Assembly: GCF_003334765.1 (NCBI RefSeq) | Contig: NZ_QOWT01000009.1 | Strand: one strand, 5' to 3' | Length of the DNA stretch: 64,000 nucleotides | DNA from: Escherichia coli | GTDB lineage: Bacteria > Pseudomonadota > Gammaproteobacteria > Enterobacterales > Enterobacteriaceae | Part shown: positions 4,287-33,952 of the stretch, piece after piece | How positions within the stretch are numbered: the stretch's first letter is position 1 | Layout: the number at the start of each line of letters is the position of its first letter | Notes under the pieces: generated by a model | Databases searched by the model: none | The model's input: the letters and a program-made list of their open reading frames with translations, nothing else | Told to the model about the DNA's origin: nothing | Made by a program: the position numbers and the translations under genes

Positions 4287-4304
4287 TTGTATTGTGATCG
4301 GTAA

Positions 4305-4580
<276 letters not shown>

Positions 4581-7053: not shown

Positions 7054-7140
7054 TAGGTCGGATAAGACGCCCCGGCGTCGCATCCGACAATGTGCAGGCG
7101 TTGATGCCGGATGCGGTGCAAGCACCTTATCCGGCCTACA
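7054..7140. repeat. REP element pair (BIME) between phnD and phnE
   Basis: taggtcggataagacgc...gcgtcgcatccgaca and gccggatgcgg...ccttatccggcctaca palindromes. Confidence 0.85.
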
Positions 7141-30821: not shown

Positions 30822-30951
30822 AATGTCTGCCGCGTGATGGCTGTCACGCGGTATTTCGTTTCGTCACGTCAAAACTGACGACAGCCTGTTTTTCGTCAGA
30901 GTTTTGAATAAATAGTGCCCGTAATATCAGGGAATGACCCCACATAAAATG

Positions 30952-30968
30952 TGGCATAAAAGATGCAT
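30952..30968 (+). promoter_or_regulatory. Sigma-54 (-24/-12) promoter of fdhF
   Basis: tGGcataaaagaTGCat matches GG-N10-GC spacing about 50 bp upstream of fdhF ATG; upstream inverted repeats (cgtcacgtcaaaactgacgacag) are consistent with an FhlA UAS. Confidence 0.7.
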
Positions 30969-31018
30969 ACTGTAGTCGAGAGCGCGTATGCGTGATTTGA
31001 TTAACTGGAGCGAGACCG

Positions 31019-33166
31019 ATGAAAAAAGTCGTCACGGTTTGCCCCTATTGCGCATCAGGTTGCAAAATCAACCTGGTCGTCGATAACGGCAAAATCGTCC
31101 GGGCGGAGGCAGCGCAGGGGAAAACCAACCAGGGTACCCTGTGTCTGAAGGGTTATTATGGCTGGGACTTCATTAACGATACCCAGATCCTGACCCCGCG
31201 CCTGAAAACCCCCATGATCCGTCGCCAGCGTGGCGGCAAACTCGAACCTGTTTCCTGGGATGAGGCACTGAATTACGTTGCCGAGCGCCTGAGCGCCATC
31301 AAAGAGAAGTACGGTCCGGATGCCATCCAGACGACCGGCTCCTCGCGTGGTACGGGTAACGAAACCAACTATGTAATGCAAAAATTTGCGCGCGCCGTTA
31401 TTGGTACCAATAACGTTGACTGCTGCGCTCGTGTCTGACACGGCCCATCGGTTGCAGGTCTGCACCAATCGGTCGGTAATGGCGCAATGAGCAATGCTAT
31501 TAACGAAATTGATAATACCGATTTAGTGTTCGTTTTCGGGTACAACCCGGCGGATTCCCACCCAATCGTGGCGAATCACGTAATTAACGCTAAACGTAAC
31601 GGGGCGAAAATTATCGTCTGCGATCCGCGCAAAATTGAAACCGCGCGCATTGCTGACATGCACATTGCACTGAAAAACGGCTCGAACATCGCGCTGTTGA
31701 ATGCGATGGGCCATGTCATTATTGAAGAAAATCTGTACGACAAAGCGTTCGTCGCTTCACGTACAGAAGGCTTTGAAGAGTATCGTAAAATCGTTGAAGG
31801 CTACACGCCGGAGTCGGTTGAAGATATCACCGGCGTCAGCGCCAGTGAGATTCGTCAGGCGGCACGGATGTATGCCCAGGCGAAAAGCGCCGCCATCCTG
31901 TGGGGCATGGGTGTAACCCAGTTCTACCAGGGCGTGGAAACCGTGCGTTCTCTGACCAGCCTCGCGATGCTGACCGGTAACCTCGGTAAGCCGCATGCGG
32001 GTGTTAACCCGGTTCGTGGTCAGAACAACGTTCAGGGTGCCTGCGATATGGGCGCGCTGCCGGATACGTATCCGGGATACCAGTACGTGAAAGATCCGGC
32101 TAACCGCGAGAAATTCGCCAAAGCCTGGGGCGTGGAAAGCCTGCCAGCGCATACCGGCTATCGCATCAGCGAGCTGCCGCACCGCGCAGCGCATGGCGAA
32201 GTGCGTGCCGCGTACATTATGGGCGAAGATCCGCTACAAACTGACGCGGAGCTGTCGGCAGTACGTAAAGCCTTTGAAGATCTGGAACTGGTTATCGTTC
32301 AGGACATCTTTATGACCAAAACCGCGTCGGCGGCGGATGTTATTTTACCGTCAACGTCGTGGGGCGAGCATGAAGGCGTGTTTACTGCGGCTGACCGTGG
32401 CTTCCAGCGTTTCTTCAAGGCGGTTGAACCGAAATGGGATCTGAAAACGGACTGGCAAATCATCAGTGAAATCGCCACCCGTATGGGTTATCCGATGCAC
32501 TACAACAACACCCAGGAGATCTGGGATGAGTTGCGTCATCTGTGCCCGGATTTCTACGGTGCGACTTACGAGAAAATGGGCGAACTGGGCTTCATTCAGT
32601 GGCCTTGCCGCGATACTTCAGATGCCGATCAGGGGACTTCTTATCTGTTTAAAGAGAAGTTTGATACCCCGAACGGTCTGGCGCAGTTCTTCACCTGCGA
32701 CTGGGTAGCGCCAATCGACAAACTCACCGACGAGTACCCGATGGTACTGTCAACGGTGCGTGAAGTTGGTCACTACTCTTGCCGTTCGATGACCGGTAAC
32801 TGTGCGGCACTGGCGGCGCTGGCTGATGAACCTGGCTACGCACAAATCAATACCGAAGACGCCAAACGTCTGGGTATTGAAGATGAGGCATTGGTTTGGG
32901 TGCACTCGCGTAAAGGCAAAATTATCACCCGTGCGCAGGTCAGCGATCGTCCGAACAAAGGGGCGATTTACATGACCTACCAGTGGTGGATTGGTGCCTG
33001 TAACGAGCTGGTTACTGAAAACTTAAGCCCGATTACGAAAACGCCGGAGTACAAATACTGCGCCGTTCGCGTCGAGCCGATCGCCGATCAGCGCGCCGCC
33101 GAGCAGTACGTGATTGACGAGTACAACAAGTTGAAAACTCGCCTGCGCGAAGCGGTACTGGCGTAA
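31019..33166 (+). CDS. fdhF: Formate dehydrogenase H (selenoprotein, 715 aa) with in-frame UGA-Sec at codon 140
   Basis: ORFs 31019..31438 and 31487..33166 are in the same frame, separated only by TGA at 31436..31438; N-terminal CPYCASGC Fe-S motif; recognised sequence. Confidence 0.95.
31436..31478 (+). other. SECIS stem-loop directing selenocysteine insertion at fdhF UGA
   Basis: tgacacggcccatcggttgcaggtctgcaccaatcggtcggtaatgg immediately 3' of the UGA; matches the classical fdhF SECIS hairpin. Confidence 0.85.
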
Positions 33167-33180
33167 TACCGTCCTTTCTA

Positions 33181-33207
33181 CAGCCTCCTTTCGGAGGCTG
33201 TTTTTTT
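33181..33207 (+). terminator. Rho-independent terminator of fdhF
   Basis: cagcctcc-tttc-ggaggctg stem followed by ttttttt. Confidence 0.85.
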
Positions 33208-33949: not shown

Positions 33950-33952
33950 GAT

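Follow-up and report, generated by a model that had tools for sequence, protein, structure and literature searches.

UGA codon 140 of Escherichia coli fdhF as a selenocysteine codon with a downstream SECIS hairpin

The plus strand of 31019-33166 in the stretch of E. coli DNA analysed here (64,000 nt; hereafter the window) is almost certainly the chromosomal fdhF gene, in which UGA codon 140 is read as selenocysteine (Sec) with a SECIS hairpin downstream of it. FdhF is a 715-aa molybdopterin/[4Fe-4S] selenoenzyme of the formate hydrogenlyase (FHL) complex. For selenocysteine recoding in bacteria this gene is the founding example, and the mechanism has been worked out on the same sequence. The evidence considered is the identity of the sequence, the in-frame UGA, the match to a SECIS model, conservation and covariation around the codon and the species-wide occurrence of selC. 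Established work on the same gene leads us to expect that binding of SelB, insertion of Sec and ligation of molybdenum would take place here too. The features are listed in Table 1.

Table 1. Sequence features of fdhF and its flanks, in window coordinates
Feature	Coordinates	Strand	Remarks
sigma-54 (-24/-12) promoter of fdhF, GTGGCATAAAAGATGCA	30951..30967	+	52 nt upstream of ATG
Shine-Dalgarno-like GGAG	31007..31010	+	8 nt before ATG; read from sequence
fdhF CDS, formate dehydrogenase H	31019..33166	+	715 codons plus stop, recoded UGA included
Full SECIS, Rfam SECIS_2 (RF01988)	31431..31485	+	87.1 bits, model 1-55 of 55
UGA codon 140, Sec codon	31436..31438	+	sole in-frame stop; aligns with X140 of the structure
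Minimal SelB-binding upper stem-loop, GGUUGCAGGUCUGCACC	31450..31466	+	positions 15-31; fold and covariation
Intrinsic-terminator-like hairpin and T-run	33180..33201	+	14 nt past the fdhF stop; consensus scan only

An earlier note on this DNA had stated that the ORF track splits formate dehydrogenase H at an in-frame TGA (31436..31438), and both the coordinates and the shared frame of the two halves are confirmed. The mechanical ORF list gives 31019..31438 (139 aa) and 31487..33166 (559 aa) in one frame, and the whole interval translates as 716 codons, of which codon 140 is the one internal stop. Downstream of it the frame stays open to 33166, a run of 575 codons that matches the full-length crystal structure. 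The note had also warned that a naive gene caller would annotate two genes or a pseudogene. This holds for the mechanical list, which does split the gene, but not for RefSeq/PGAP, in which fdhF of strain 300709 is one uninterrupted CDS over the same span and not a pseudogene; some records name it ‘selenocysteine-containing’. Mechanical ORF finders, in other words, split selenoprotein genes, and curated pipelines such as PGAP are correct here.

The assignment of the gene to fdhF, also made in the note, stands on several grounds. In several E. coli chromosomes the annotated fdhF shows 100% DNA identity to the window over 2.4 kb spanning the site. The alignment to the selenoprotein that had been suggested as a check was carried out with Cys placed at position 140, and residues 1-715 align to the 715-aa chain of PDB 1AA6/1FDI/1FDO/2IV2/7Z0T with 1667 bits. 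The solved formate dehydrogenase H chain differs from the translated protein at two positions, X140 and A713V, the latter being a single conservative C-terminal substitution relative to the crystallised K-12 enzyme. With the NCBIfam equivalog model TIGR01591, for the alpha subunit of formate dehydrogenase, the protein reaches 1095.7 bits (cutoff 666.25), and the match covers residues 6-685, running across the TGA. The N-terminal [4Fe-4S] motif, C8-x2-C11-x3-C15 ... C42, is present in the translation exactly as in the solved enzyme. In strain 300709, fdhF is preceded by ytcA-mdtN-mdtO-mdtP and followed by yjcO-gltP-nrfGFED. With 714 of 715 residues identical to those of the characterised enzyme, the protein would be expected to oxidise formate within the FHL complex.

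The UGA lies in the motif context CARV-U-HGPS, at the Mo-ligand position aligned to X140 of the 1AA6 chain, and the proposal that it is a selenocysteine codon is borne out by this alignment to a non-standard residue. X140 of 1AA6/1FDO we take to be selenocysteine, the Mo ligand in FDH-H.

The second element of a bacterial recoding site is the hairpin. The covariance model SECIS_2 has a gathering score of 70 bits and matches the region with a posterior probability of 1.00 (E = 8.5e-19 for the 3 kb searched and 1.8e-17 for the whole window), the only SECIS above the gathering score in the 64 kb. The 55-nt element does not differ from the Rfam SECIS_2 consensus at any informative position. SECIS_3 (RF01989), with a gathering score of 63, gave the window element only 35.8 bits. 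The claim that the 40 nt after the TGA form a SECIS stem-loop is thus upheld by the score of 87.1 bits; the interval 31436-31478 is exactly the UGA plus the 40-nt element, and the Rfam model reaches 5 nt further upstream and 7 nt further downstream.

When folded, the ~40-45 nt from the TGA give one stem-loop, whose apical loop is the 4-nt GGUC, with a minimum free energy (MFE) of -14.9 kcal/mol. This energy is not significant (z = -1.56), as an equal or better fold is reached by 12 of 200 dinucleotide-preserving shuffles, and hairpin stability was dropped as a discriminator. Of the ‘stable hairpin with the conserved apical loop’ expected in the note, the loop is therefore there, and is invariant, but the stability is unremarkable. 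Since fold energy alone is not distinctive, the covariance model and the comparative data are taken as the evidence. What discriminates the SECIS is not its stability but the specific apical loop and the bulge, together with the distance of both from the UGA.

For the description of the structure, positions are numbered from the U of the UGA, so that the window coordinate is 31435 + n. The upper minihelix is made of the pairs G15-C31, G16-C30, U18-A29, G19-C28, C20-G27 and A21-U26, with a bulged U17 (31452) and the loop G22-C25 (31457-31460), in which G23 is 31458 and U24 is 31459. The spacing from the UGA to G15 is exactly 11 nt. Below this, positions ~3-14 pair with 32-42 in a lower stem with internal mismatches. 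The published minimal fdhF SECIS is likewise 17 nt long, covers positions 15-31 and lies 11 nt from the UGA, and U17, G23 and U24 are essential in it (reviewed in PMC8659212). For the identical K-12 sequence, both SelB binding and selenium-dependent read-through of the UGA are known from experiment (PMC4513850, PMC8659212).

Within E. coli the site is nearly universal. The fdhF locus was found in 5,420 of 5,426 complete genomes, and 1,676 of 5,421 records show 95-99% identity to the window over the 2.4 kb, a band that is accounted for by synonymous differences between E. coli lineages elsewhere in fdhF. In 5,420 of 5,421 records, identity over the 121 nt that surround the SECIS is at least 99%; for two control segments of fdhF of the same length this level is reached in 1,698 and 5,010 of 5,420 records. 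The lone divergent record, strain 14EC007, carries only synonymous changes in the 66 nt around the UGA and keeps both the UGA and the hairpin. A tRNA-Sec gene (selC) is annotated in 5,425 of the 5,426 complete genomes. The 64-kb window itself contains no tRNA gene, and the Sec machinery is not encoded there.

For comparison beyond E. coli, a single genome of each species was searched with a degenerate DNA pattern encoding C-A-R-V-UGA-H-G-P, and at least 120 loci were returned. The presence of the TGA in these loci is not independent evidence, because the pattern demanded it; by fixing positions -12 to +11, the pattern also leaves alignment columns 1-11 without independent information. The matches listed are mostly from Enterobacterales (Enterobacter, Citrobacter, Klebsiella, Proteus, Providencia, Serratia, Edwardsiella, Hafnia and others) and Pasteurellales, and there are also some from Shewanella, some unclassified Proteobacteria MAGs and some Coriobacteriales. 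Among these listed matches, the frame stays open for at least 20 codons past the TGA in nearly all loci, and nearly all read on as *HGPSVAGL(HQ/QR/LK)SVGNGAMSN. One pattern match, in Rhizobiaceae, meets a stop four codons past the TGA and has no hairpin; it was regarded as chance or degenerate and excluded.

Collapsing the 45 nt from the UGA left 36 distinct sequences among the matches listed, of which 33, from Enterobacterales, Pasteurellales and Shewanella, could be placed in an ungapped alignment. Sequences from four Coriobacteriales loci remained outside it, as their stems are not alignable; they still have GGUC at 22-25. On the literature structure 88.3% of the cells in the alignment are paired, compared with 12.7-47.1% when the 3' partners are slid by 1-3 columns. 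Cells with double changes number 14, against 2.9 +/- 1.3 in column shuffles, and fall mainly on pairs 18-29 and 15-31, although the aligned sequences are related and these changes represent perhaps two or three independent events. Among the 33 distinct sequences from the matches listed, pair 18-29 is UA in 26, AU in six and CG in one, with no broken case; at 15-31, GC occurs in 25 and UA in six. The AU at 18-29 with UA at 15-31 is probably a single event in Pasteurellales. The CG at 18-29 is one event in Shewanella.

The same columns bear on which nucleotide is bulged. The MFE fold prefers a register with U17-A29 paired and U18 bulged, and this was rejected, since U17-A29 is broken in six of the 33 sequences whereas U18-A29 is never broken and covaries. 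The comparison therefore favours U17 as the bulge, as in the literature. U17 and the loop G22-C25 are invariant in all 33 distinct sequences from the matches listed, with the proviso that the conserved Gly-Leu dipeptide encoded there constrains G22-G23 and C25-U26 as well.

The most informative comparative signal is the invariance of synonymous sites. The four-fold-degenerate A21 (Ala146), U24 (Gly147) and G27 (Leu148) do not vary in the 33 distinct sequences from the matches listed, and at the four-fold sites of position 12 (Pro143) and position 42 (Gly153) all four bases are seen in the alignment. Synonymous sites are thus frozen in the apical part and free outside it, which points to selection on the RNA rather than on the protein. 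For the K-12 element, loss of read-through after synonymous disruption of the apical stem-loop has already been reported.

The lower stem behaves differently from the upper minihelix. Its pairing is good in Escherichia and close relatives and degenerate in other genera: of the 33 aligned sequences, 21 lack the pair A12-U34 and 15 the pair A3-U42. This weak conservation is in line with the literature, in which the upper minihelix and its spacing alone are regarded as essential. It is conceivable, though unlikely, that the lower stem tunes recoding efficiency or mRNA stability in a lineage-specific way and is more than a passive spacer.

Three other explanations of the interrupted frame have to be weighed against recoding. 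If the TGA were a disabling nonsense mutation, fdhF would be a pseudogene and the 139-aa fragment its sole product. The mechanical ORF does end at 31438, and some ribosomes do stop at UGA140, where recoding is ~30-40% (PMC4513850). Against this, identity of at least 99% over the 121 nt around the TGA would hardly be kept in all but one of 5,421 E. coli records, nor would 575 conserved open codons downstream match a full-length crystal structure; the frame runs past the equivalent TGA in nearly all loci from other genera among the matches listed, and RefSeq carries no pseudogene flag. The case for two adjacent genes of 139 and 559 aa, sharing a frame by coincidence, draws on the two entries in the ORF list, the second of which has an ATG at 31487. 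It founders on the 16 codons of 31439-31486, which match the solved single chain residue by residue, and on the single HMM, TIGR01591, that spans the TGA between residues 6 and 685. Either explanation is improbable in the extreme.

A subtler alternative accepts the read-through but makes it independent of the SECIS, a near-cognate tRNA (Trp or Cys) suppressing the UGA next to an incidental hairpin. That the hairpin energy is not significantly below that of the shuffles, and that the conserved Gly-Leu codons also constrain much of the loop, would be in keeping with this idea. An incidental hairpin would, however, be at odds with the match to the curated SECIS_2 model, with the frozen synonymous A21, U24 and G27 beside other four-fold sites that are free, and with the compensatory changes at 18-29 and 15-31, and suppression of this kind is highly improbable, if slightly less so than the other two. 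All three rivals also run counter to the published data on selenium- and SECIS-dependence (PMC4513850, PMC8659212), to the full-length identity with a crystallised single chain and to the near-universal conservation around the TGA in E. coli, and the frozen synonymous sites and covariation of the apical element speak against them too; even combined, they amount to a very small probability.

Recoding of UGA140 with the SECIS hairpin would then proceed as follows. The ~40 nt of mRNA directly 3' of UGA140 would fold into the bacterial SECIS hairpin, and the C-terminal domain of SelB would bind the 17-nt minihelix, through loop and bulge, before the hairpin has entered the mRNA channel of the ribosome. 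SelB-GTP with its Sec-tRNA(Sec), whose tRNA comes from selC and has the anticodon UCA, would in this way be tethered beside the oncoming ribosome and, once UGA140 occupies the A site, would hand over selenocysteine. The ribosome would then unwind the hairpin and translate it as codons 141-153 (HGPSVAGLHQSVG), while ribosomes without Sec insertion would be terminated by RF2. Working with fdhF codons 130-179 (Sec140), Kotini, Peske and Rodnina found recoding of 30-40% in vivo and ~40% in vitro, with RF2 acting mainly on ribosomes without inserted Sec (PMC4513850). Recoding is partial because RF2 terminates where Sec insertion has failed, and since it is partial, a 139-aa truncated product is an expected by-product and no refutation.

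The surroundings of the gene are those of an independent transcription unit. The promoter motif GTGGCATAAAAGATGCA is letter-for-letter the motif of a site mapped by sigma-54 ChIP-seq in K-12 and attributed to fdhF (b4079) (PMC4591121, table row OS41). As a statistical test of the promoter, the consensus itself proved uninformative: TGGCAC-N5-TTGCA with 2 mismatches has 21 matches in the window against 27.6 expected and is not rarer than chance, so the assignment rests on the published mapping and on position. The hairpin at 33180-33201 has a 9-bp stem (6 G-C pairs) and a 4-nt loop and is followed by TTTTTTT. A similar terminator-like site lies at 30828-30853, at the end of mdtP. With its own promoter motif and flanking terminator-like sites, fdhF appears to be monocistronic, as is known. 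Another sigma-54-like pattern, at 31441-31456, overlaps the SECIS; it is most probably a chance match, a functional role being the weaker possibility.

The fdhF SECIS is already fully known, and every defining feature of SECIS_2 and of the Fdh-alpha family that can be tested in a sequence was found in the window. The practical use of the site is as a positive control, a genuine recoding site recognisable from raw sequence. The closest known system is fdhF (b4079) of E. coli K-12, whose UGA140 and SECIS are the same element as in the window; the mdtNOP-fdhF-yjcO-gltP-nrf context is shared and the sigma-54 motif identical, and the difference is that the window protein carries A713V. The SECIS of fdnG/fdoG and those of other bacterial families (SECIS_3) follow the same logic, an in-frame UGA directly followed by a hairpin within the coding region, the apical loop of which recruits SelB, but their stem sequences are unlike that of fdhF, and fdnG and fdoG are absent from the window. 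At the level of the protein, Mo/W-bisPGD formate dehydrogenases (PDB 7QV7, 7BKB, 6TG9 and others) belong to the same fold and family, with E values of 1e-198 to 1e-148. At the equivalent position, many members of this family encode Cys (TGC/TGT) and can do without recoding. Eukaryotic and archaeal SECIS elements, too, are RNA structures that act in cis to have UGA read as selenocysteine. They are found in untranslated regions, from which they act at a distance, and those of eukaryotes use a kink-turn motif bound by SBP2, whereas the fdhF element is inside the ORF, begins at the UGA and is itself translated.

Selenocysteine 140 aside, the formate dehydrogenase H encoded by fdhF differs from the crystallised K-12 enzyme in a single amino acid, A713V. 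The gene is absent from only six of the 5,426 complete E. coli genomes, and tRNA-Sec from one; at least one genome of this collection carries two copies of fdhF, and four of the fdhF matches come from plasmid-labelled records.

Repeated motifs of the TCGTCA/TGACGA type (tttcgtttcgtcacgtcaaaactgacgacagcctgtttttcgtcagag) are found ~50-110 nt upstream of the fdhF sigma-54 site, in the region where the literature would place the FhlA upstream activating sequence of fdhF. Within the gene, a sigma-54-like pattern (CGGCCCATCGGTTGCA) overlaps the lower 5' arm and the upper stem of the SECIS, the hairpin just 3' of the UGA. Matches to TGGCAC-N5-TTGCA with two mismatches are fewer in the window than expected by chance, and the one inside the SECIS is probably a coincidence. 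The sigma-54 ChIP-seq study (PMC4591121) names fdhF a single time in its main text, in connection with the promoter site.

The window also holds seven matches to naRNA4, a family derived from REP/BIME elements, two of them in the yjcO-gltP interval. The array in this interval differs in copy number between strains, that of strain 300709 being longer than the window's by 226 nt (two 113-nt units). Around nrfE the two sequences are 99.96% identical, yet nrfE of strain 300709 is annotated as frameshifted. Judged from its sequence, nrfE is probably intact in the window strain, since its reading frame is uninterrupted and the pairwise alignment of the window with strain 300709 has only one gap opening across 33952-39075.

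Features located in the window, with strand and basis
Feature	Position	Strand	Remark
naRNA4 (RF02564), three tandem copies, 100-nt spacing	4304-4580	+	Rfam match
naRNA4 (RF02564)	7056-7136	-	Rfam match
TCGTCA/TGACGA-type repeated motifs	30855-30901	+	mdtP-fdhF intergenic region
sigma-54-like pattern	31441-31456	+	2 mismatches to TGGCAC-N5-TTGCA
fdhF codon 713	33155-33157	+	Val; Ala in crystallised K-12 enzyme
naRNA4 (RF02564)	33954-34137	-	Rfam match
nrfE-position ORF, 560 aa, uninterrupted	36878-38560	-	counterpart annotated frameshifted in strain 300709
naRNA4 (RF02564)	44673-44743	-	Rfam match
sraL (RF01408), Hfq-binding sRNA, full-length match	51981-52121	+	Rfam, 153.3 bits

Among the matches listed for the degenerate CARV-UGA-HGP pattern, two separate loci, both with an fdhF-type SECIS, occur in Pluralibacter gergoviae (L017/L018), Cedecea neteri (L035/L036) and Leclercia adecarboxylata (L080/L081), which suggests that each of these genomes encodes two Sec-containing FdhF paralogues. 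Locus L054, on an uncultured Rhizobiaceae contig, has a second stop four codons past the TGA and lacks a SECIS-like hairpin; the locus probably represents either a decayed gene or a chance hit to the pattern. The same listed matches include Sec-FDH genes with the CARV-UGA-HGP context from Coriobacteriales/Slackia MAGs of the Actinomycetota (L031, L062, L077 and L090). The position of the SECIS loop appears to be kept across phyla, although the comparison is partly confounded by the Gly-Leu codons, because these four loci have GGUC at positions 22-25 after the UGA, as in the fdhF SECIS, despite a stem (CUGUCGUC...GAUUGACA) that is quite different in sequence.
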